Shown here piece after piece: positions 4,695 to 53,741 of a stretch of DNA of 64,000 bases. The stretch comes from a virus. The stretch's first letter is position 1; each line of letters begins with the position of its first letter. The stretch lies in the IMG/VR virus record IMGVR_UViG_3300046373_000196, positions 1-64,000 of that record; one strand, written 5' to 3'. Below the pieces are notes generated by a model, which was not told the origin of the DNA, made no database searches, and was given only the letters and a program-made list of their open reading frames with translations. The position numbers and the translations under genes were made by a program.

Positions 4695-4723
4695 AAATAA
4701 ATATCTTCCTGTGATATTTATTT
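4695..4723. promoter_or_regulatory. 29-bp dyad promoter/operator element, copy 1
   Basis: AAATAAATATC-ttcctgt-GATATTTATTT. Lies upstream of the minus-strand gene starting at 4652. The -7-like TATATTTA (rc of 4682-4689) is only 5 bp from the arm, an outlier in spacing. Confidence 0.6.
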
Positions 4724-6672: not shown

Positions 6673-7099
6673 TTGTTTGATTGGTTTGATTAGTAACAGG
6701 TGTTTTAATGGTTGGAATTGTTTCAGCAATTTTTTGAATACCTGCTGCATTCTTCTTACGCGATGCAATGCTTCGTTTCAGGCTTTCTTCGTAGTAGTCA
6801 AGCTTCTGTTGGTCTCTTATCGCATTAGCATCGGTACGGGTTAGTACAAGAGTGTTGCAGTCATCGTATTTTTTAGACATTGCATCAAACTTTCCTTGCC
6901 ATAGCTCAATTGATTTTGCGTCTGCGTCCCGCTGAAACTGAACGGCTGCAATTTTCTCTTCGTCTTTTGAATTCAATCTATTATTAAAGTAGAGAATTAC
7001 AGACACAAGCGATGCAATTGCAAGCAGGTAGCTTCGTATAAGTGCTTTATTGGGGTTCTTTTCCGATTCGTCGGTAATTTTATCAATGTTGTTCTCCAC
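6662..7099 (-). CDS. bitopic membrane protein with coiled-coil ectodomain
   Basis: TM segment LIRSYLLAIASLVSVILYF followed by charged helical sequence. GTG start in the ORF track. Confidence 0.45.
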   Translation of the reverse strand: MENNIDKITDESEKNPNKALIRSYLLAIASLVSVILYFNNRLNSKDEEKIAAVQFQRDADAKSIELWQGKFDAMSKKYDDCNTLVLTRTDANAIRDQQKLDYYEESLKRSIASRKKNAAGIQKIAETIPTIKTPVTNQTNQTNEN

Positions 7100-9968: not shown

Positions 9969-9997
9969 AAATAAATATTGTAGAATGATATTTATTC
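9969..9997. promoter_or_regulatory. 29-bp dyad promoter/operator element, copy 2 (bidirectional)
   Basis: AAATAAATATT-gtagaat-GATATTTATTC. -7 boxes TATGTTTG at 10012-10019 (+) and TATCTTTA (rc of 9950-9957, -). Confidence 0.7.
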
Positions 9998-10026
9998 TGT
10001 TGATTAATTAGTATGTTTGAGGCGTC

Positions 10027-10110
10027 AATAACGTTGCAGGTTATTAACACTCAAAAAGATATTCAAAGCCTGGCTTAGTAGCGCTGCAACCGCGAACAGC
10101 CGGGCTTTTT
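10027..10110 (+). promoter_or_regulatory. structured 5' leader: hairpin plus terminator-like hairpin with complementary 7-nt apical loops
   Basis: Hairpin 1: AATAAC/GTTATT (10027-10045) with loop GTTGCAG. Hairpin 2: AAAGCCTGGCT/AGCCGGGCTTT (10065-10108) with inner GCG/CGC and apical loop CTGCAAC (10084-10090), then a T-run. The ATG is at 10124. Confidence 0.6.
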
Positions 10111-10123
10111 GTAATTTAATATT

Positions 10124-10777
10124 ATGGAAAAAGAAAAGTATGAGACTCAAAAGGATTTGTTTTATATTCTTGAAAATTGGGTTAACGGAGATTACCAAGC
10201 CAATTATTTAAGAACTATCAATAGAGAAAACAAGAAATATTTAATTTCGGATTGCCAGCGATATGTAAAATCTTGGGATGTTCCTGGTCAGGATTACAAA
10301 TACACTTTTATATACAAGTGGGCAAGAAAGTACTTTAAAGATGATAGCGAGCTAGGATTTAGGCGTTCTATTGATAGGAATTCAAATACAGATGGTGTCA
10401 TGAATTACTCACTAGTTCAACCTTACGAAGTACAATGCAATGAAGATTTTAAAAAGTTATTTGAGGGCAAACATTTGAGTCTGTATGACTTTAATATTCC
10501 TACTAATCATCCCTTTTCTGGATGGGATTTAAAAACAGTCTCTTATCTGAAATCGCTATTTAAAACAAATGAAGTTTACGTTTTTTTTGATGATGGAATA
10601 GAAAGAAAGCCTCAATCTGACCTACATAAAACAGGTACTTTATTTCATATGAACCATTTCGGGATTGACAAAAAATTTATAAAAAACGATTTGCAGTATT
10701 ATAATAGAACTATCATTTTTTGGCTATTTGAAAACAGATTAGTTTTTAAATATGAATCGGGGAAAGATACTTGGTAG
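10124..10777 (+). CDS. hypothetical protein
   Basis: ORF track. First gene after promoter copy 2 and the leader. Confidence 0.5.
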   Translation: MEKEKYETQKDLFYILENWVNGDYQANYLRTINRENKKYLISDCQRYVKSWDVPGQDYKYTFIYKWARKYFKDDSELGFRRSIDRNSNTDGVMNYSLVQPYEVQCNEDFKKLFEGKHLSLYDFNIPTNHPFSGWDLKTVSYLKSLFKTNEVYVFFDDGIERKPQSDLHKTGTLFHMNHFGIDKKFIKNDLQYYNRTIIFWLFENRLVFKYESGKDTW

Positions 10778-13012: not shown

Positions 13013-13762
13013 TTACAGGTAACCGTTTTCGGTCTCCGGTTTACGCTTTCTTCTCATGGATTCTCCTTTTAATTCTATGCGGTGTGCGTCATGAACAATA
13101 CGATCTAAAATTGCATCCGCAATTGTTTTTTCTCCGATTACTTCGTGCCATTTGCTTACCGGTAATTGAGATGTGATGATAAGTGATGTCTTGCCATGCC
13201 TGTCTTCAATGATTTCCATCAGCGCTGCCCTGCTTTGAGCATCGAAGGGCTGGATGCCAAAGTCGTCAAGAATTAGGAGCTGCTGCCGCTCGATTTTAGC
13301 AATTTCTTTGATATAAGATCCGTCAGCCTTAGCCATTTTGAGCTTGGCAAAAAGTTTGGGAGTACTCGCGTAAAATACGCGGTAGCCCAGGATGCATGCC
13401 TGATGGCCAATCGCAGACGCTACATAACTTTTGCCGATCCCTGTGCTTCCAGTGATTAGCAGATTCTCGTTGCGTTCAATAAAAGTACACTCTGCCAGGC
13501 GTATAACCTGGTTGCGGTCGATACTCCGGTCAGCGTGGTAATGTACATTTTCAACCATGGCCTTATAGCGGAAGCGTGCAGACAGGATCTGCCGTTCTAC
13601 ACGACGGTTATTTCGATCATCCCATTCAGCGTCAACCAGATGAGCTAAAAGCTCATCTGGTGTATAATTGTTGGTCTGCCCGGTTTCCAGGCTACTTTTA
13701 AAGGCATGGAACATGCCGAAGAACTTAAGCTTGCGTAATTTTTCTAATGTGCTGCTATTCAT
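13013..13762 (-). CDS. istB: IS21-family helper ATPase IstB
   Basis: Walker A GSTGIGKSY, Walker B LLILDDFG, and a typical IstB N-terminus (KLKFFGM...). Confidence 0.9.
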   Translation of the reverse strand: MNSSTLEKLRKLKFFGMFHAFKSSLETGQTNNYTPDELLAHLVDAEWDDRNNRRVERQILSARFRYKAMVENVHYHADRSIDRNQVIRLAECTFIERNENLLITGSTGIGKSYVASAIGHQACILGYRVFYASTPKLFAKLKMAKADGSYIKEIAKIERQQLLILDDFGIQPFDAQSRAALMEIIEDRHGKTSLIITSQLPVSKWHEVIGEKTIADAILDRIVHDAHRIELKGESMRRKRKPETENGYL

Positions 13763-13782: not shown

Positions 13783-15333
13783 TTATTGATAGTAATCTTC
13801 GCCTCTGATATTATCATGTTTTGGCATTTGCAATTCGTCCGCAAAAAGACTGTCTTCATATTGATCCATGTTCTTCTCCAGGATGGTCTGGATTGTCTTG
13901 TAATTATATATCCCATAACTTAAGGCCCTTTGACAGGCGCTGATCAGTCTTTGTTCACCAGCCTTTTTTGCAAAAGATAAAATGCCGATACAGGAGCGGT
14001 AGGCCTGTTCGGGGTGCTGCTTACGGTCCAGGATTTTAAGGATATACAACCTGACATCTTCGTGGATTGATGCGGCCCATTCCAAAAAACGGTCAGGTGT
14101 CCAGTCTGTTACGAAGCGGTGCGTGCTGGCCAGATGTTCTTTATCCGTGGAATAACTGTAGGGGCTTTTAACACGCTTGTGCAGGGCTATGCGCTCGTAG
14201 TGATAGTACATCTCAACAAGAGAAGTAGAATATAAAAGCTTTACTTTTTTACCAATAAAGCGGTAAGGAACGCTATAATAGTGCTTATCTACCCCCAGGC
14301 AAACGTGACCGTTCTTCATTACCGTTACATGGGCGTGCTTTTTAAACTCATACCGCAGAAGCGGAAGCGGGGCCAGCGCAGAACGCTCAACTTCTTCAAA
14401 CTGAAGCCGACGGCTGTAATTACGTCCGCGCAGGAGCTGACTGTTATGTACTTCAAGTGCCTGAAGTATCGCAGAATTTAACTCAGAAAGTGAGCTGTAT
14501 ACCTGTTTTCTCAAAGGAGCATAGATCCGGCTGTAAACGATTTTAACCGCTCCTTCAACCAAGGCTTTATCGCGTGGTCGGTAAGCACGTGCAGGCAAAA
14601 TGGTAGTGCCATAATGATCAGCAAAATCAGCAAACGATTCATTCAGGGTAGGCTCATAACGGTGACTTTTAGTAACTGCTGCCTTTAAATTATCCGGAAC
14701 AATGGCAGCTGGAACACCGCCGATATAATGAAGTGTATTCTCGCAGGCAGCTATAAAATCTTCCTTCTGCTGGCTCATAACAGCTTCTACATAAGTAAGC
14801 TGACTAGCGCCAAGAATAGCAACAAATACCTCAACGTCAGTCACTTCTCCAGTCTCTTTATCTGTTAGATTCAGCTTGACGCCAGCAAAATCAACATATA
14901 ACTTATCACCTGCCTTGTGATCCTGATGCATCACAGGATTTACCCTGGCTTTCCATTTGGTTAAATGGAAGCAGAACTGGGTATAGGCAAAACCGTCGGG
15001 AAACTCTTTTTTATAGGCTTCCCAAAGCATGCGCCTATTTACTCCGGTTCGTTTTAGCTCCTTGTCAATATGGGGAAAACAACGCTGTAAGACCAGTAAA
15101 CGGTCCTGTGATGGTGGTTCTTTAACCGTGCCGAAAAAGTCGTCAAGTTCTTTATCATTGAGGCTGTTGATCTGTTCGAATGTAAGCCCGCTCGCATCAT
15201 AGGTAGCCATATACTTCTTGGCTGTATTACGCGAGACACCGGTCTGCTCAGCAATTGAAAGTTTGCTGCGACCTTGACTGTACATCCTTAAAATCTGTCT
15301 TATCTTACTCATGCTGATTGTCGAATTAGCCAT
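13783..15333 (-). CDS. istA: IS21-family transposase IstA
   Basis: N-terminal HTH (IRQILRMYSQGRSKLSIAEQTGVSRNTAKKY). DDE-type core with DFAG...D...E spacing typical of IstA. 516 aa. Confidence 0.9.
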   Translation of the reverse strand: MANSTISMSKIRQILRMYSQGRSKLSIAEQTGVSRNTAKKYMATYDASGLTFEQINSLNDKELDDFFGTVKEPPSQDRLLVLQRCFPHIDKELKRTGVNRRMLWEAYKKEFPDGFAYTQFCFHLTKWKARVNPVMHQDHKAGDKLYVDFAGVKLNLTDKETGEVTDVEVFVAILGASQLTYVEAVMSQQKEDFIAACENTLHYIGGVPAAIVPDNLKAAVTKSHRYEPTLNESFADFADHYGTTILPARAYRPRDKALVEGAVKIVYSRIYAPLRKQVYSSLSELNSAILQALEVHNSQLLRGRNYSRRLQFEEVERSALAPLPLLRYEFKKHAHVTVMKNGHVCLGVDKHYYSVPYRFIGKKVKLLYSTSLVEMYYHYERIALHKRVKSPYSYSTDKEHLASTHRFVTDWTPDRFLEWAASIHEDVRLYILKILDRKQHPEQAYRSCIGILSFAKKAGEQRLISACQRALSYGIYNYKTIQTILEKNMDQYEDSLFADELQMPKHDNIRGEDYYQ

Positions 15334-15396: not shown

Positions 15397-15517
15397 GGTG
15401 GTCAGTTTGCTCCGAATTCAGGTGGTCAATTTACTCCGAATTCGGGTAGTCAATTTCGCCCGGAACAGGTGGTCAGCTTAAACCGAATTGAGGTGGTCAG
15501 TTACACCGAATTTTCCA
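15397..15517. repeat. five direct subterminal repeats at the IS21 right end
   Basis: GGTGGTCAGTTTGCTCCGAATTCA / GGTGGTCAATTTACTCCGAATTCG / GGTAGTCAATTTCGCCCGGAACA / GGTGGTCAGCTTAAACCGAATTGA / GGTGGTCAGTTACACCGAATTTTCCA. Multiple transposase-binding repeats are a hallmark of IS21 ends. Confidence 0.8.
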
Positions 15518-20101: not shown

Positions 20102-20130
20102 AAATAAATATCGTAGATAGATATTTTTAT
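20102..20130. promoter_or_regulatory. 29-bp dyad promoter/operator element, copy 3 (bidirectional)
   Basis: AAATAAATATC-gtagata-GATATTTTTAT. -7 boxes TAGCTTTG at 20145-20152 (+) and TATCTTTG (rc of 20083-20090, -). Confidence 0.7.
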
Positions 20131-20161
20131 TGTTAGGAAATTAGTAGCTTTGGGGTGTACT

Positions 20162-20253
20162 AAATGGTATTTCTTTTGTGATAGGAAGTGATACCATTCT
20201 CTGGAATGGAACTTCCATCAGACCCCAAACTTGTCTATCACCTTGTTTGGGGT
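20162..20253 (+). promoter_or_regulatory. structured 5' leader: hairpins plus terminator-like hairpin with complementary loop sequences
   Basis: Hairpin AATGGTAT/ATACCATT (20163-20198) carries GTGATAG (20178-20184) in its loop. A small hairpin TGGAA/TTCCA follows. Hairpin ACCCCAAAC/GTTTGGGGT (20222-20253) carries CTATCAC (20235-20241) in its loop, followed by a U-rich tract. The ATG is at 20270. Confidence 0.6.
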
Positions 20254-20269
20254 TCTTCGTTTATTTATC

Positions 20270-20959
20270 ATGCACGATCCAAGAACACTAGCTTTCAGTA
20301 TAAAAAGTCCTTTTAAATCAAAGTCAGGCTATCAACCTTCATTAATTGATATATGGCACGTTGATCCGGATAAAGGGTATGATGATGACAGTTGTGGTTG
20401 GTTTATTCGTGAGCGTCACATGAATAAAAAGAATCTTGAATTTATCCGAAGAGATTTTGAGTATTCATACAAAGAGTGGTATTATGAATCAAATGGATTA
20501 GGTCGGTTTTCTCCCCATGCTATCGCTATAATGATGTACAATCGTGCTGTGTGGGAATTAGCAGATGGTAATACGGATTTTAAATCAAAAACGCGAGAAG
20601 TATTTATGAGAAAGTATTTGTATGATATACTTTATTTCTCAGAAAATAGTACAGATTCTATTTGCCGAACACTTACCAGTGCAACCAAAGGAGAAGTTGT
20701 TGATTTGGCTGGTATAATTGCCGCGGATGTAGCTAGAAAATTACGCCCTTGGTACAAGCACCCACGCTGGCATATTCATCACTGGGAAATTCGATTTAAT
20801 TTCTATTATGATTTTTATCGTGGTTACATTCAAAAATGCGACAATTGCGGGAAAAGGGGATGGAAAGGTGGATGGTTTAGGACTTACAAGAATGGAAAAC
20901 CATTGCTTTCATGCGGAAGGTGTCAGGAAATTGGATGTAAGTCAACGGTAAATTCTTAA
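20270..20959 (+). CDS. hypothetical protein with C-terminal Cys-rich (zinc-ribbon-like) tail
   Basis: ATG at 20270 (MHDPRTLAF...). HPRWHIHHW motif. CDNCGKRGW...CGRCQEIGC. Confidence 0.5.
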   Translation: MHDPRTLAFSIKSPFKSKSGYQPSLIDIWHVDPDKGYDDDSCGWFIRERHMNKKNLEFIRRDFEYSYKEWYYESNGLGRFSPHAIAIMMYNRAVWELADGNTDFKSKTREVFMRKYLYDILYFSENSTDSICRTLTSATKGEVVDLAGIIAADVARKLRPWYKHPRWHIHHWEIRFNFYYDFYRGYIQKCDNCGKRGWKGGWFRTYKNGKPLLSCGRCQEIGCKSTVNS

Positions 20960-21819: not shown

Positions 21820-21848
21820 AAATAAATATCATAATACAATATTTATTT
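21820..21848. promoter_or_regulatory. 29-bp dyad promoter/operator element, copy 4 (head-tail operon)
   Basis: AAATAAATATC-ataatac-AATATTTATTT. -7 box TACATTTG at 21862-21869 (+). Confidence 0.7.
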
Positions 21849-21948
21849 GATTTTTTAATTATACATTTGTTGTGTATGATAAAAGCCAAGTTTTCATTCG
21901 ATTGAACCCTTGGAACGACAGAATACTACACACACACTTAATTATTTC

Positions 21949-23273: not shown

Positions 23274-24371
23274 ATGAGCAAGTTCAAATCCATTTTTGGA
23301 GAATATGCTTCAAACCTTCAGTTGGTGATCGACAGCAAATTAAACAGCTTCGCTCCAACCTGGTATCCGAAGTATTTCGGATGGTCGCCAACTCAGCAAT
23401 CTTTAACGTTCCAGTCAGCAATTGGCCGCGCACGTATAGAGGCTATGGCATCCATCGTTAACCGCGATTCTACCACTCCGCTTCGTAGCCGTCAAGGTCT
23501 TGAAAAATTGTCTGGTGAAATTCCGGCAATTAAGGAGATGTTTAAAATGCAGGAAAGCGACTATCGCGAATTCCTGTCATTGCAAAACATGCCTGTAGAT
23601 GACAACACCAAGAGAATTCAACTTTTAGATTTCCTTTTCGGGGATGTTAAAAAAGTAGGTGATGCAGCCCATAAACGTCTTGATGCAATGGCATTGGAGG
23701 CAATCTCTACGGGTTTTATCACGGTAACAGTAGGCAATAACCCTGATGGTTTGGTGCTTACTTCGGCTGTCCCTCTTGGGATGCCACCTGAAAACTTCGT
23801 ACAAAGTCCTTTTACCTGGGCAAACCCAACAACGGCTACTCCAATTTCAGATATTGAAACTGTAAATCAGTTGGCGTTTGAAAAAGGCATTGGACTTGAA
23901 AAAGTTCTTATGTCCATGGCGTTGTTCCGCAAGTTCAAGAAAGCAAAAGAAGTACTGGACACGCTGCAAGCTTTCTATTACAGCTCGAAGCCAGGCGGAT
24001 CTTTCAATCCTGTTGCGATCACAGCACTGGATAAAGTGAACGAAGCATTGCAGGCGCAGGGACTTCCTTACATCGAAATCGTAAACGAAGCGACTGGTAT
24101 TGAAAAAGATGGTTCAATTACTGTATTCCGCGCATTCAACGAAAACAACGCAGTATTTGTACCAGGCGGTCAGCTTGGAACGATCAAAAACGCTCTTGCA
24201 ATTGAACAATTCCGCCCTGTTACGCAGGTAGGTTATGGTAATTACAACCGCGCTGTGATTTCTAAATGGTCTGAAAACGAACCTTTTGGAGAGTGGACTA
24301 AGGTTGAGCTTAATGCTTTTCCTGCAGTTGAAGCGATTGATAGCATGTACATCCTGACAGCTTCATTCTGA
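23274..24371 (+). CDS. major capsid protein (gpE-like by size, position and pattern)
   Basis: 365 aa, strong CACACAC leader, lies between the scaffold and head-tail connector genes. Confidence 0.65.
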   Translation: MSKFKSIFGEYASNLQLVIDSKLNSFAPTWYPKYFGWSPTQQSLTFQSAIGRARIEAMASIVNRDSTTPLRSRQGLEKLSGEIPAIKEMFKMQESDYREFLSLQNMPVDDNTKRIQLLDFLFGDVKKVGDAAHKRLDAMALEAISTGFITVTVGNNPDGLVLTSAVPLGMPPENFVQSPFTWANPTTATPISDIETVNQLAFEKGIGLEKVLMSMALFRKFKKAKEVLDTLQAFYYSSKPGGSFNPVAITALDKVNEALQAQGLPYIEIVNEATGIEKDGSITVFRAFNENNAVFVPGGQLGTIKNALAIEQFRPVTQVGYGNYNRAVISKWSENEPFGEWTKVELNAFPAVEAIDSMYILTASF

Positions 24372-36666: not shown

Positions 36667-36695
36667 AAATAAATATCATCCTTAAATATTTATTT
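36667..36695. promoter_or_regulatory. 29-bp dyad promoter/operator element, copy 5
   Basis: AAATAAATATC-atcctta-AATATTTATTT. -7 box TACATTTG (rc of 36644-36651, -). Confidence 0.7.
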
Positions 36696-38405: not shown

Positions 38406-39434
38406 CTAGTTAAATCCAATCGTTTTATTCTTAACCAACGAGAAGTTTATTTCTTCTTGATTGTACAAATCACTCAAAGTCATTGGTGTTAAAATCGGTT
38501 CTGAATTATTTAAGCTTTTATTTATAGAGTTACATTTTTCTAATGCCAACTCTTTAAACTCGTACTTGGCTATAATTCTTCCTTTTCTCAGTAAAGCTTT
38601 GTCAATTGTAGTTATGTCAGAATTAAACGTGCATAGTATTTGTATGTTTAGAATATCAGAAAGCAACCCATCACTTAAATTTAAAAGATTAGACACCGAA
38701 TTGCTATTTCCTAATTGTCGATCCATAATAACATTTTCAGCATCTTCGATAACCAAAATAGAATTAGGATGTTGTATTAAAAAAGTAATAAAACTGGGAT
38801 CGGTTAATGATGGAGTTAAACTTGGCGGAATAAATATGATTTTTTTTCTTATATTGTTAATTAAATGTCTAATATAAGTCGTTTTACCGGTACCTGGTTT
38901 TCCGTATAATAAAACAACTCCTTTACTACCATTACTATTAAGCCTGCTATTAATCAAGGCATGCACATCAATAAAATCATCATTATAGTTTTTATAAATA
39001 TCTAAACCTATGGTAGGTATCTCAATGCTTTGTAGATAAAGTCCGCCACTATTAGCACACACAATATTGATATTAGAGGTCTTGAATTTAATTGGATTTT
39101 TTAAAATAATTTCCTTTAATCGACTGGTGCATTCACTTTCATTATTGAAAAATATATTCACTTCTGAATATTCTTTATCGAAAGATAAGTAAATAAGTAC
39201 TTGTTCTTTAGTTAACTTAAGTAAAGATGTATATGAGGTTATAAAATCACTGTCCACAAAATTTTCAGTTGTTTTAATAACTTCATATTCAAACTCTGAA
39301 ATAATTTCATTCTCAATATCAATGGTATTGACATTACTTTTGAAATATATACTAGGAATAATTCCGAAGGAATGGTGATAATATTTGTGTAATGATAATG
39401 CGCCGTAATTATCGTATAAATCTGAATTTTTCAT
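38406..39434 (-). CDS. AAA+ ATPase with unassigned N-terminal domain
   Basis: Walker A LLYGKPGTGKTT and Walker B ILVIEDAE, followed by a sensor region. Confidence 0.8.
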   Translation of the reverse strand: MKNSDLYDNYGALSLHKYYHHSFGIIPSIYFKSNVNTIDIENEIISEFEYEVIKTTENFVDSDFITSYTSLLKLTKEQVLIYLSFDKEYSEVNIFFNNESECTSRLKEIILKNPIKFKTSNINIVCANSGGLYLQSIEIPTIGLDIYKNYNDDFIDVHALINSRLNSNGSKGVVLLYGKPGTGKTTYIRHLINNIRKKIIFIPPSLTPSLTDPSFITFLIQHPNSILVIEDAENVIMDRQLGNSNSVSNLLNLSDGLLSDILNIQILCTFNSDITTIDKALLRKGRIIAKYEFKELALEKCNSINKSLNNSEPILTPMTLSDLYNQEEINFSLVKNKTIGFN

Positions 39435-40247: not shown

Positions 40248-40595
40248 TCAATACTTGAAAGGAAAGTACTTTTTAATAAAGTCTGCTTGTTTTGTCGAAT
40301 CTTTCTTGAATTCTTTAACAACATTATCAACCTTTAATTGAATTTGTTTTGATTCGTTATAATTACTATCTGCAATTACCCTGTACTTAATCATTTCACT
40401 TGTATTTCCATAGCTCATATTTGACATACTCATATTGAATATGGCCGTGTTCATAATTTCTGACTTATCGTTCATGAGTTCTTTCCATTTGTTAAAACGG
40501 TTAGATGACACGAAACTTCCCGGTTTAGCAATACAAATCCATAAAACTAAGTAAACGCCAATTATTGATCCAATTGTAATTAGAGTAACTCTCAT
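40248..40595 (-). CDS. N-terminally anchored membrane protein
   Basis: VTLITIGSIIGVYLVLWICIA TM segment. First gene after promoter copy 6 and the leader. Confidence 0.5.
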   Translation of the reverse strand: MRVTLITIGSIIGVYLVLWICIAKPGSFVSSNRFNKWKELMNDKSEIMNTAIFNMSMSNMSYGNTSEMIKYRVIADSNYNESKQIQLKVDNVVKEFKKDSTKQADFIKKYFPFKY

Positions 40596-40616: not shown

Positions 40617-40704
40617 AAACCCGCATCAAGTGAGGTTGACGCGGGTTTCTATGAATTTCCATTCATTGAATGGTATTGAGGAGCCTCACTTCGCCAATAC
40701 CATT
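40617..40704 (-). promoter_or_regulatory. structured 5' leader (minus strand): hairpin plus terminator-like hairpin with complementary loops
   Basis: RNA sense. Hairpin 1: AAUGGUAUUG/CAAUACCAUU (40669-40704), loop containing AGUGAGG. Hairpin 2: AAACCCGCGUCAA/UUGAUGCGGGUUU (40617-40648), apical loop CCUCAC, then a U-rich tract. The ATG is at 40595. Confidence 0.6.
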
Positions 40705-40733: not shown

Positions 40734-40762
40734 ATAAAAATATCGAATAAAGATATTTATTT
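40734..40762. promoter_or_regulatory. 29-bp dyad promoter/operator element, copy 6
   Basis: ATAAAAATATC-gaataaa-GATATTTATTT. -7 box TACCTTTG (rc of 40715-40722, -). It starts 10 bp after the argH stop. Confidence 0.7.
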
Positions 40763-40771
40763 AAACAAAAT

Positions 40772-42106
40772 CTATTCAAGCAACTTCTCAAAAGCCACTT
40801 TCACATTCTTAAACTCAAATTTGGATATCTCCGCCATCATCCGGCCATAGATCAGATCATTCTGCAAGTTTCCGATACTGCCTTCGTGCGTATGTTTCAG
40901 TTGACGCGGCGGAACATAACTTCCATCACCAATTTCTGCTCCAACCTGACGGTACGCATCACGGAAAGGAACGCCGTTGATTACCAGCTCATTCACCCTT
41001 TCCACACTGAAAAGTAGATCGTATTTAGGGTCGTCAAGCAAATTTTGTTTTACCTTGATATTTTCAAGCATAAAGGCTGCAATATCCAGACAGTCCAGTA
41101 TTTCGTCAAAAGCCGGCATCAGGATTTCTTTCAAAAGCTGCATATCACGATGATAACCTGATGGAAGATTACTCAAAACCATTGTTATTTCCATTGGCAA
41201 AGCCTTCATCCGGTTCGTTTTGGCACGAAGCAATTCGGCTACATCCGGATTTTTTTTGTGCGGCATAATGCTGCTTCCGGTCGTTAGATCATCTGGCAAA
41301 ATAATAAAGCTGAAATTCTGGCTGTTGTACAAACAAACATCCATCGCAAGTCTTGAAACCGTAGCAGCTAAGGAAGAAATGGCTGTTAGCGCAGCTTGTT
41401 CCGTACGTCCACGGCTCATTTGTGCGTAAACAACATTGTGGTGCATTCCTTCAAAACCCAGCAATTCCGTTGTCATAGTCCTGTTCAACGGGAAGGAAGA
41501 ACCGTAACCGGCACCCGATCCCAGCGGATTTCTGTTTGCCAGACGGTATGCAGCGTTTAATTGAATTACATCGTCGATCAAACCTTCGGCATAAGCACCA
41601 AACCATAATCCGAAAGAGGAAGGCATGGCAATCTGCAAGTGGGTATAACCTGGCAAAAGATCATTTTTATGTTCTTCTGATTTGCTGATTAAAACATCGA
41701 AAAGTTTTTCCGTAGCTTGTACAACCTGAAAAAGTCGGTCACGGGTATAGAGTTTCATATCAACCAGAACCTGATCATTACGGGAACGACCGCTATGGAT
41801 TTTCTTGCCAATATCACCCAATTTGCGCGTCAGCATTAATTCAACCTGTGAATGAACATCTTCAACGCCGTCTTCAATGATAAATTCGCCTAGCTGAATC
41901 TGCGCATAAATTTCTTTAAGTTCCGCTTTCAATGCAGCCAGATCATCAGCCGTTAGCAAACCAATTGTTTCCAGCATAATCGCATGTGCAAGATTTCCAA
42001 GCACATCAAATTCTGCCAAATGCAGATCCATCTCACGATCACGACCTACGGTAAAACGTTCTATTTTTTCAGAAGTAACGGTATTTTCTTTTTGCCAGAG
42101 TTTCAT
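40772..42106 (-). CDS. argH: argininosuccinate lyase
   Basis: MKLWQKE start (ATG at 42106). Fumarate-lyase signature GSSIMPHKKNP. Full-length ArgH-like sequence throughout. Confidence 0.9.
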   Translation of the reverse strand: MKLWQKENTVTSEKIERFTVGRDREMDLHLAEFDVLGNLAHAIMLETIGLLTADDLAALKAELKEIYAQIQLGEFIIEDGVEDVHSQVELMLTRKLGDIGKKIHSGRSRNDQVLVDMKLYTRDRLFQVVQATEKLFDVLISKSEEHKNDLLPGYTHLQIAMPSSFGLWFGAYAEGLIDDVIQLNAAYRLANRNPLGSGAGYGSSFPLNRTMTTELLGFEGMHHNVVYAQMSRGRTEQAALTAISSLAATVSRLAMDVCLYNSQNFSFIILPDDLTTGSSIMPHKKNPDVAELLRAKTNRMKALPMEITMVLSNLPSGYHRDMQLLKEILMPAFDEILDCLDIAAFMLENIKVKQNLLDDPKYDLLFSVERVNELVINGVPFRDAYRQVGAEIGDGSYVPPRQLKHTHEGSIGNLQNDLIYGRMMAEISKFEFKNVKVAFEKLLE

Positions 42107-42129
42107 AGTCCTAAAATTAGGCTGCAAAC

Positions 42130-46447: not shown

Positions 46448-46476
46448 AAATAAATATCATAAAAAGATATTTATTT
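46448..46476. promoter_or_regulatory. 29-bp dyad promoter/operator element, copy 7
   Basis: AAATAAATATC-ataaaaa-GATATTTATTT (perfect dyad). -7 box TACATTTG (rc of 46428-46435, -). The plus-strand ATG at 46493 is only 17 nt away. Confidence 0.7.
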
Positions 46477-51614: not shown

Positions 51615-51884
51615 TTTTCTTTGCTCAACCGGGAAGATGCGTCTAACTTCTTCCCGGCCACCAACCTTTAATCAGAACATCCACCTTGCAGACTTCTGAG
51701 CGTGATTTTTATTTCATAGATGCGCTTTCCAAGCTATAAAATTAAGGTTCGAACTAAAAAGAGGAAACCCCAATCGGTAGAAGGCGACTGGGGTTAGGCG
51801 GAACACTAATTCCGTGAAACAATGTTCGCGCCTTCTACCTCGAGGACATTGTTAATTGCTCTGTAAACATACAAATAATTTCAA

Positions 51885-51913
51885 TATAAAATATCTTTCT
51901 ACGATATTTATTT
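51885..51913. promoter_or_regulatory. 29-bp dyad promoter/operator element, copy 8 (distal tail operon)
   Basis: TATAAAATATC-tttctac-GATATTTATTT. -7 box TAACTTTG at 51926-51933 (+). Confidence 0.7.
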
Positions 51914-51956: not shown

Positions 51957-53741
51957 ATGGCAATATTTCTTTCAGCAGGAGATTCCCAGTTTCAACAAAC
52001 AGGCAAGGGAGATATAAACTTTTTCAGAAACGGATTTGATACAGAGGTAAATAACATCTTTGAGGCAACCGACAAAGGAAAAGCTGGCCAGTTTATATAT
52101 AATCCCGATAGTCAGGGACTGGATGACAATGGAGGAATGTATCTTGTCAAAAACGGAAGAGTATACGAACGGACGTTTGAAGGTTATGTAAAGCCTGAAT
52201 GGTTTGGTGTTTCTCTTGCTACAACATACGTCAATGAAACTGCCCTGATGATGAAGGCGGTAGCTTATTTAATCAGTAAAGGCGGCGGTGTTCTAAGGCT
52301 TTGTAATAAGGTTTATTTCTGCAATCTGGCTTGGAGAGCAGATGATAATATTTCGATCCAGGGATCGAACGCGGAAAGAACGATGATTCAAAGCGTAAAT
52401 GAAAATCAGTTTGCTGTAAGGATAGATGGCGGTTTTTTATCTAAGGGTTCGTTTTTAAGGGATATTACCATCACAGGGCAGGGGCAGGTAAACAGAAGAC
52501 GGCACGGAATTTATTTTAACTGTGGATCTTTACCTTACCTTGACAATGTGGCTGTTGTTGATTGCGGGATTGGAATATGCCTGAACGGCACCATTGACGG
52601 TCATTTCAACCGTCCTATATTGAAAGGGAATTACGTAGGTGTTTTTATTACGACAGTTCACGGAGCCAGCGCAACAATAACCAACGTAGTAGAAGGAACA
52701 GATGAATTTAGCCTGGTTCTTTCTGATGCCGCCGACACACACCCCTCAGAGCACACTTTCATCGCTCCGGTATTTTTTGCAAACACCTTTCATTACATTG
52801 TTGACAATCACTCTACCTTCCCGGCAAACGCGAACATTAAGATATTTGGAGGCAGTATGCAGGGTTCAGCATGTGGGGTAGTGGTAGAATCAAGTCCTGG
52901 ACTTTTAGAGCAGCCGATGGTTTGGGACGGCGTATGGCTTGAAAATACATCAAGCAACCCGCAGCCGCACAAATTTAATGGTAAAACTTACGCGCCAAGA
53001 GATCTTTTGATGAATAGCGGACAGGCTTTGATTAAAGGATCTTTCATAACCAAAATGCACGCAGGGCCTGGCGCTATTATCGAATTTGATAACTGTAATT
53101 TTTATGATACTTACGAAGGACAGCTAACAACTTCGGGCAACGGCACCTTTATCGGAAAAGGCATAAAAGGCTACGGTACATTTTTACCTTTTAATTTCGA
53201 AAATGGTATAAACACTGACGCAACCCACATGCTTGGCTTTTATACCAAACCAAAAACGGTTCTAAGTAGGGCCTATTCCCAAAATAAAAGATATGCTAAC
53301 ACATTCGGGGAAACCGGCGCCAATGTTAATTCTTGGGGACAAGGAACGGTAATCAGCAAAGTTCCGGGTGGTGTCATGGATGGTACTTGCATGAACGTTC
53401 TGGTTCCTACAAGCGGTGGCGGGTTTTACGTTGATGTTCCTGTAAAACAAGATAAAATATACGCTTCGTGCTTTGCTATAAGAAGTATAGGTGATGGCTT
53501 TAAGATATCCCATGCAAACACTGGTAATATCCACTTTGGAAATACTGCTTTCAGTATAACACCGGAATGGAAAACCATTGTCATGATAGGCAGGGGTAAT
53601 GGTGAGGCTACAGCCGGGGTGCTATTAACTCAAAGCACCGGATCATCAAAAGAGTGGCAGATGTCAGGCTGGCAGATCCTTGAATTCAATAATCCTGGGG
53701 AGCTAAACCAATTCTTAGCCTCTGAGACCTTTGCAATATAA
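51957..53741 (+). CDS. beta-helix tailspike/depolymerase-like protein (pectate lyase superfamily)
   Basis: YVKPEWFGVSLATTYVNETALMMKAVAYLISKGGGVLRLCNKVYF matches the Pectate_lyase_3 N-terminal pattern. No signal peptide. Confidence 0.6.
   Translation: MAIFLSAGDSQFQQTGKGDINFFRNGFDTEVNNIFEATDKGKAGQFIYNPDSQGLDDNGGMYLVKNGRVYERTFEGYVKPEWFGVSLATTYVNETALMMKAVAYLISKGGGVLRLCNKVYFCNLAWRADDNISIQGSNAERTMIQSVNENQFAVRIDGGFLSKGSFLRDITITGQGQVNRRRHGIYFNCGSLPYLDNVAVVDCGIGICLNGTIDGHFNRPILKGNYVGVFITTVHGASATITNVVEGTDEFSLVLSDAADTHPSEHTFIAPVFFANTFHYIVDNHSTFPANANIKIFGGSMQGSACGVVVESSPGLLEQPMVWDGVWLENTSSNPQPHKFNGKTYAPRDLLMNSGQALIKGSFITKMHAGPGAIIEFDNCNFYDTYEGQLTTSGNGTFIGKGIKGYGTFLPFNFENGINTDATHMLGFYTKPKTVLSRAYSQNKRYANTFGETGANVNSWGQGTVISKVPGGVMDGTCMNVLVPTSGGGFYVDVPVKQDKIYASCFAIRSIGDGFKISHANTGNIHFGNTAFSITPEWKTIVMIGRGNGEATAGVLLTQSTGSSKEWQMSGWQILEFNNPGELNQFLASETFAI

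Follow-up and report, generated by a model that had tools for sequence, protein, structure and literature searches.

On the minus strand of a 64,000-nt stretch of phage DNA (positions 1 to 64,000 of IMG/VR virus record IMGVR_UViG_3300046373_000196; hereafter the window, meaning the whole stretch analyzed), a leader region, here called Mc, lies between a 451-aa fumarate-lyase-family (Lyase_1) gene at 40772-42127 and an operon starting at 40595. The former, called argH in an earlier note made from the sequence alone, is directly upstream of Mc and may be an auxiliary metabolic gene. The first gene of the latter (40248-40595, minus strand) encodes 115 aa and is followed by three small ORFs, an AAA ATPase (38406-39434), and a 532-aa protein. 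Read on the minus strand, the region begins with a palindromic element, AAATAAATATC-N7-GATATTTTT (40762-40736), lying upstream of the -33 region, and the box TACCTTTG (40722-40715), which has the TAnnTTTG form of the -7 box established for Bacteroidota sigma-A promoters; transcription is inferred to start at about 40708. Three hairpins then follow. H1 (40704-40669) is a 10-bp 5′ hairpin with arms AAUGGUAUUG (40704-40695) and CAAUACCAUU (40678-40669) and a 16-nt loop; H2 (40666-40651) is a small hairpin, AUGAAU-GGAA-AUUCAU; and T (40648-40617) is a 13-bp G+C-rich terminator hairpin with arms AAACCCGCGUCAA (40648-40636) and UUGAUGCGGGUUU (40629-40617) and the 6-nt loop CCUCAC (40635-40630). The U tract UCUUAUUU occurs at 40616-40609, and the ATG lies at 40595, 21 nt after the stem.

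The earlier note had proposed that this is a leader RNA downstream of a repeated promoter, that its two loops are complementary, and that it belongs to a family. Every coordinate and sequence it gave was confirmed. The H1 loop carries AGUGAGG (40690-40684), and the complementarity with the T loop is 6 nt within the loop and reaches 8 nt, AAGUGAGG (40691-40684) with CCUCACUU (40635-40628), if the first two nucleotides of the 3′ arm, both U, are counted. Folding of the RNA from its likely start predicted H1, H2, and T at -37.8 kcal/mol, the wider 131-nt region had z = -5.9 against dinucleotide shuffles, and a consensus terminator scan also picked out T, with 14 pairs, 6 of them G-C. When the upstream leader was shuffled, a complement of at least 8 nt to this terminator loop occurred with P = 0.002. 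Furthermore, one G-U pair in the T stem (G40640-U40625) would be an A-C mismatch on the other strand, in agreement with the minus strand being the RNA strand. The suggestion of the note that the hairpin would also stop read-through from argH is plausible, since it lies on the same strand about 125 nt after the stop codon.

The window is part of a phage genome of about 79 kb, which was closed by two flanking loci from a Logan assembly of the same phage. PHROG and Pfam hits included a major head protein (23274-24371), a 1428-aa tape-measure protein, tail proteins, and a small terminase, and the large terminase (TerL) has 65-77% relatives in prophages of Spirosoma, Emticicia, Parapedobacter, Fibrella, and Chryseobacterium. 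The closest isolates by capsid and tail proteins are Riemerella, Porphyromonas, and Bacteroides siphoviruses, at about 40-44% identity. An IS21-family insertion sequence sits inside the genome (13013-15333, minus strand), with an IstA-like transposase at 13783-15333 (phrog_1157) and an IstB-like ATPase at 13013-13762 (PF01695, E = 8e-71), and a short tandem repeat follows just beyond its end (15399-15449).

To examine whether the architecture recurs, the copies of the palindromic promoter element were inspected. This 27-bp element, AAATAAATATY-N7-GATATTTWT with slight variants in some copies, occurs at least eight times in the window (4697-4723, 9969-9995, 20102-20128, 21822-21848, 36669-36695, 40736-40762, 46448-46474, and 51887-51913) and at 18438-18464 of L166, a locus in the rest of the same genome. 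It lies just upstream of the -33/-7 promoter boxes of most transcription units, in some places serving divergent promoters, and is probably the binding site of a phage transcription regulator. The same pattern happens to be contained in a repeat of about 75 nt at the ends of five contigs of the Chitinophagaceae MAG JBDHYH01, which is probably the end of a multicopy mobile element that breaks the assembly and is unrelated to the phage.

Besides Mc, three copies in the window are followed by the same kind of leader. In Ma (9969-10123, plus strand), the element at 9969-9995 and the box TATGTTTG at 10012-10019 precede H1 (10027-10045), whose 7-nt loop GUUGCAG is at 10033-10039, and T (10065-10108), whose apical 7-nt loop CUGCAAC is at 10084-10090, so that both segments are complete loops; the ATG is at 10124. 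In Mb (20102-20269, plus strand), the element at 20102-20128 and TAGCTTTG at 20145-20152 precede H1 (20163-20198, with GUGAUAG at 20178-20184), H2 (20206-20218), and T (20222-20253, with CUAUCAC at 20235-20241), and the ATG is at 20270. In Md (51913-51756, minus strand), the element at 51913-51887 and TATGTTTA at 51871-51864 precede H1 (51853-51818, with GGUAGAAGGCG at 51839-51829), H2 (51814-51799), T (51795-51766, with CGCCUUCUACC at 51786-51776), and a U tract (51765-51756). Downstream of Md lie a tRNA-Met (CAT) gene (51614-51541), about 150 nt away, and an ORF at 51511-51017. If the tRNA is cotranscribed, its expression would depend on read-through of this terminator; a further strong hairpin without a U tract lies at about 51622-51652, just upstream of the tRNA. 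A fifth member, Me, lies outside the window at 18438-18623 of L166, with GUUCGAGA and UCUCGAAC as its complementary segments, ahead of a YopX gene.

Next, other phages were searched. Because the members share too little sequence for a meaningful alignment and the loop-loop pairing is a pseudoknot that Infernal cannot model, a purpose-written detector was used in place of a covariance model. In L041, a 45-kb Logan contig, the orthologue of the gene behind Mb (51% identity) has its true ATG at 10130, the database gene call being 43 codons too long, and is preceded by TAAATTTG, H1 with loop AGUGGAAG, H2 (GUGAAAC-ACAU-GUUUCAC), and T (GCCCGUAUGG-UCUUCCAC-CUGUGCGGGC-U6), the loop-loop pair being GUGGAAG/CUUCCAC. 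In the contig L232 (TerL 68% identical), a clean three-hairpin leader was found, in which the 7-nt H1 loop CGGCGAA and the 7-nt T loop UUCGCCG are fully complementary and the fold has z = -5.6. In the contig L245 (TerL 71%), the pair is GAGCGAA/UUCGCUC. It is worth noting that in related phages only about 10 kb on each side of TerL, less where a contig ended, was examined.

These eight leaders from four phage genomes share one layout: promoter, H1, usually H2, T, U tract, and then the start codon. They are 90-104 nt long, with the two complementary segments 42-50 nt apart, and H2 is present in seven of eight, Ma lacking it, and abuts T by 0-3 nt. Apart from short motifs shared by Mb and Mc, they show no sequence similarity. 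Mb (20163-20209) and Mc (40704-40659) have the strings ACUAAAUGGUAU, AUACCAUUC, and GAAUGGAA in common, while their loops and terminators are unrelated. Searches of viral contigs with the core motifs of these two (AATGGTA..TACCATTC..GAATGG) gave only chance hits inside coding sequence, blastn of two leaders and megablast of 10 kb against GenBank phages gave nothing, and no sequence homologue was found in the phage, viral-contig, genome, or metagenome collections.

The architecture at orthologous loci gave a mixed outcome. Whereas the orthologue of the gene behind Mb carries it in L041, it is absent where that gene sits inside an operon, which holds for the loci L005, L038, L039, L229, and L230 and for all 58 viral-contig loci, although one of the 58 (L204) gave a complement of at least 7 nt on a weak hairpin overlapping the gene start. 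The architecture is absent upstream of most orthologues of the downstream genes, and Mc itself has no orthologous locus in the data. Homologues of the AAA ATPase and of a 594-aa beta-helix tail protein (Phage_tail_beta; 51957-53741, plus strand) led to unrelated contexts; the only homologues of the latter (38-39% identity) sit inside bacterial capsule or exopolysaccharide gene clusters and not in phages, suggesting a depolymerase exchanged with the host. Riemerella phage PJN03 showed no example, and RAP44 gave only one A+T-rich match that we judge to be chance. Of note, the protein behind Mb (20270-20959, plus strand) belongs to a large uncharacterized phage family with invariant Cys, His, and Trp motifs (DDSCGWF, WYKHPRWHIHHW, CxxC), which occurs in phages with G+C from 27% to 67% and has no Pfam, PHROG, or PDB match; a profile of this protein found no solved structure. 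In this family, the database gene call for P0005 starts 43 codons too early and swallows the leader.

To determine whether the loop complementarity could be coincidental, cognate and noncognate pairs were compared. The cognate complementarity is 7, 7, 8, 11, 8, 7, 9, and 7 nt, with a different sequence in each of the eight members, whereas noncognate combinations among the six members compared pairwise (Ma to Me and the L041 member) reached only 3-6 nt. Shuffling of each upstream part gave P = 0.024, 0.041, 0.002, 4e-5, 0.003, and 0.031 for the six members tested. Because Md, Me, and the three members from other phages were found with a detector that requires the complementarity, their P values are conditional, and the unbiased test rests on the promoter copies: all five copies in one genome that are followed by a terminator within about 150 nt also show at least 7 nt of loop complementarity. 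In about 2.8 Mb of other phage and bacterial DNA, 6-7% of terminator-like hairpins had a complement of at least 7 nt, and these were mostly A+T-rich, had very large loops, or lay in coding sequence. At a 7% background, five of five corresponds to about 2e-6. One unrelated bacterial terminator, AAAAUCCCGCU...AGCGGGAUUUU, at about 6699-6734 (minus strand) of a Lysinibacillus mangiferihumi contig, has a loop with an 11-nt perfect complement, CUAUCAAACUA, about 70 nt upstream, and may be an antiterminator or another kissing arrangement.

These data bear on the possibility that the hairpins are ordinary gene-end terminators and promoter-region repeats, or that the inverted repeats act at the DNA level as protein sites or cruciforms, the complementarity being coincidental. 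The position of the Mc terminator after argH, the 6-7% background, and a general scan for pairs of hairpins with complementary loops, which gave 2-9 hits per shuffled window, would be compatible with this. However, five of the eight members (Ma, Mb, Md, and those of L041 and L232) have a divergent upstream gene, indicating that in these T cannot be a gene-end terminator and must act on transcripts from the leader's own promoter. The complementary sequences all differ, which rules out a shared protein site, and G-U pairs in the stems fit only the proposed strand. We therefore consider this explanation very unlikely.

Only 11-37 nt separate T from the start codon, Md with its downstream tRNA-Met being the exception, leaving no room for a second promoter, and no antisense TAnnTTTG box was present within the regions scanned around the four window leaders. 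Expression of the operons therefore requires read-through of T, which is the logic of an attenuator. No classical antiterminator competing for the terminator arms was predicted, as folding showed no alternative structure that disrupts the T stem. In transcripts truncated at the end of the T loop, however, pairing of the two segments was thermodynamically favored, with a net -1.7 to -7.7 kcal/mol, suggesting that the kissing loop should form before the 3′ arm of T emerges.

Based on these findings, we propose with moderate confidence that each unit is a cis-acting transcription attenuator, in which an intramolecular kissing loop of about 7 bp, private to each leader, sets or switches how often T completes; termination in vivo, the kiss, its sign, and the regulatory input are inferred from sequence without expression data. 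A coaxial H1-kiss-T stack would be about 80 Å long by a rough geometric estimate (2.8 Å per base pair), and by the same estimate H2 folded directly against T would leave too short a tether for H1, the kissing helix, and a full-length T stem to coexist. We therefore slightly favor that the kiss hinders completion of the lower T stem and promotes read-through. When the H1 loop is unavailable, T would form and a roughly 90-100-nt RNA would be released. The loop could be hidden by a trans factor or by an alternative pairing of the H1 3′ arm with H2, as the 5′ part of H2 in Mc (GAAUGG) can instead pair with the 3′ arm of H1 (CCAUUC); the mutually exclusive AAUGG/CCAUU/GAAUGG arrangement, which allows H1 or an alternative hairpin but not both, is shared by Mb and Mc, and Md has a comparable alternative, but it is clear only in these three. 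Nevertheless, the opposite sign, in which the kiss organizes large T loops and helps termination, is almost as likely: T loops of 14-22 nt in Ma, Mb, and the L245 member argue for it, and the short-tether argument does not hold for Ma, which lacks H2. In addition, the kissing segments lie almost wholly in the loops and do not compete with the T stem for base pairs, and a 6-7-bp kiss is probably compatible with a closed hairpin, as in ColE1 RNA I/II, so that an effect on termination is not guaranteed.

Two other readings appear possible but less likely. In the first, the terminators would be constitutive, partial volume controls that lower expression of accessory operons relative to structural operons driven by the same promoter, whereas the kiss, H1, and H2 would only shape or stabilize the 5′ untranslated region or the released RNA, for example, against RNases. 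Supportively, the copies of the promoter element without a leader run straight into a gene, including 21822-21848 before the head-tail operon at 21910, as well as 4697-4723, 36669-36695, and 46448-46474, whereas the operons behind leaders are mostly accessory or DNA-metabolism genes. U tracts and kiss strengths also differ between members, as expected if each is tuned, and no regulator was identified among 50 phage proteins scanned, many small ORFs not being included. However, a fixed level could be set more simply by terminator strength alone, and this reading explains neither why a 7-bp loop-loop complement at a fixed distance is kept in eight unrelated sequences nor the mutually exclusive pairing shared by Mb and Mc.

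In the second, the terminated 90-100-nt RNAs would themselves be functional phage small RNAs whose loops act between molecules, either by the free T loop of a finished RNA kissing the H1 loop of a nascent leader of the same operon, giving operon-specific feedback, or by pairing into dimers or rings or serving as seeds for other targets. The private complementary pairs and weak noncognate matches would matter mainly if the RNAs can meet in trans; a strong promoter, a 5′ hairpin, and a terminator are the anatomy of a stable sRNA; terminator loops of sRNAs are known to pair with targets (PMC11979758); and finished RNAs would have free loops if H2 and a full T stem exclude the cis kiss sterically. 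On the other hand, intramolecular pairing has a large advantage in effective concentration, the constant 42-50-nt spacing points to a constraint within one molecule, and private sequences can also arise by drift with compensation. A still more speculative and rather improbable combination is that the leaders form a natural set of orthogonal, sequence-addressed RNA switches, in which the cis kiss permits read-through, whereas terminated RNAs keep their loops free and push nascent leaders of the same 7-11-nt address to terminate as well, giving an operon-specific, protein-free, self-reinforcing shut-off timer during infection. This would be a single-transcript version of countertranscript attenuation and a natural counterpart of engineered orthogonal RNA transcription regulators.

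To our knowledge, no antitermination or attenuation system has been described for phages of Bacteroidota, in which gene regulation is almost uncharted, and kissing-loop control of a terminator is otherwise known only inside ligand-binding riboswitches. If the kiss controls termination without a ligand pocket, this principle would work as a free-standing module with exchangeable specificity, of interest to RNA biology, phage annotation, as these units mark operon starts, and synthetic biology. The eight examples also provide a search template for more members.

The leaders were then compared with known systems. No Rfam 15 family matched at gathering score in the window or in the four other loci, and relaxed scans (E <= 1-10) over four leaders gave only far subthreshold generic leader or terminator hits. 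Phage promoter-proximal terminators overcome by antitermination, such as lambda PR′-tR′ 6S RNA with Q, HK022 put RNA, and P4 CI RNA with seqA/seqB/seqC, likewise seem to place a short structured RNA and a terminator ahead of an operon, with paralogous copies (putL and putR) in one genome and, in P4, complementarity within the leader controlling premature termination. None of them appears to use complementarity between a 5′ hairpin loop and the terminator loop, the present element contains the terminator itself, unlike put, and no match to a known antiterminator family, Q-, N-, or NusG-like included, was found among the 50 proteins scanned. The phi29 pRNA, of about 120 nt, probably likewise carries two mutually complementary loops whose complementarity is conserved between phages while the sequence is not, but these probably pair between molecules over 4 nt to build the packaging motor ring, from a single gene in phi29-like podoviruses; here, no Rfam pRNA hit was obtained, five copies per genome lie ahead of unrelated operons, and the phage has a tape-measure protein and so is siphovirus-like. 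In countertranscript-driven attenuation (pT181, pIP501, pAMbeta1, and Enterococcus pCF10 Anti-Q), loop-loop kissing with a leader hairpin decides whether an intrinsic terminator forms, and specificity lies in the loop sequences, which is why engineered orthogonal sets exist (PMC3753616). Those systems use a separate antisense RNA from the opposite strand, whereas here both partners lie on the same transcript, no antisense promoter box was present in the regions scanned, and the only weak ctRNA hit (RF00236) scored 20 bits against a gathering score of 45. In corrinoid (cobalamin) riboswitches, an L5-L13 kissing loop steers terminator formation in either direction (PMC10327014), but that system needs a large ligand-binding aptamer, its kiss is only 3-4 bp, and P13 is a hairpin separate from the terminator; no Rfam cobalamin hit was obtained here, only about 45-65 nt precede the terminator, and the terminator's own loop takes part in the predicted kiss. 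The closest analogue is the guanidine-IV riboswitch (mepA motif), also of about 100 nt, in which a kissing loop between P1 and the hairpin that extends into the terminator hinders the complete terminator stem through a linker-length constraint and so controls read-through (PMC11611296). Its loops, however, are conserved and form the ligand site, and its kiss is weak without guanidine, whereas here the loops differ in every member, are complementary over 7-11 nt, and offer no conserved pocket; no guanidine or mepA model was listed in the Rfam scans, and the downstream genes are phage ORFs (small membrane proteins, an AAA ATPase, YopX, and dUTPase) and tRNA-Met in place of guanidine exporters. 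We therefore regard the element as a putative kissing-loop-controlled attenuator that resembles the expression platform of the guanidine-IV riboswitch but is free of a ligand pocket and variable in sequence.
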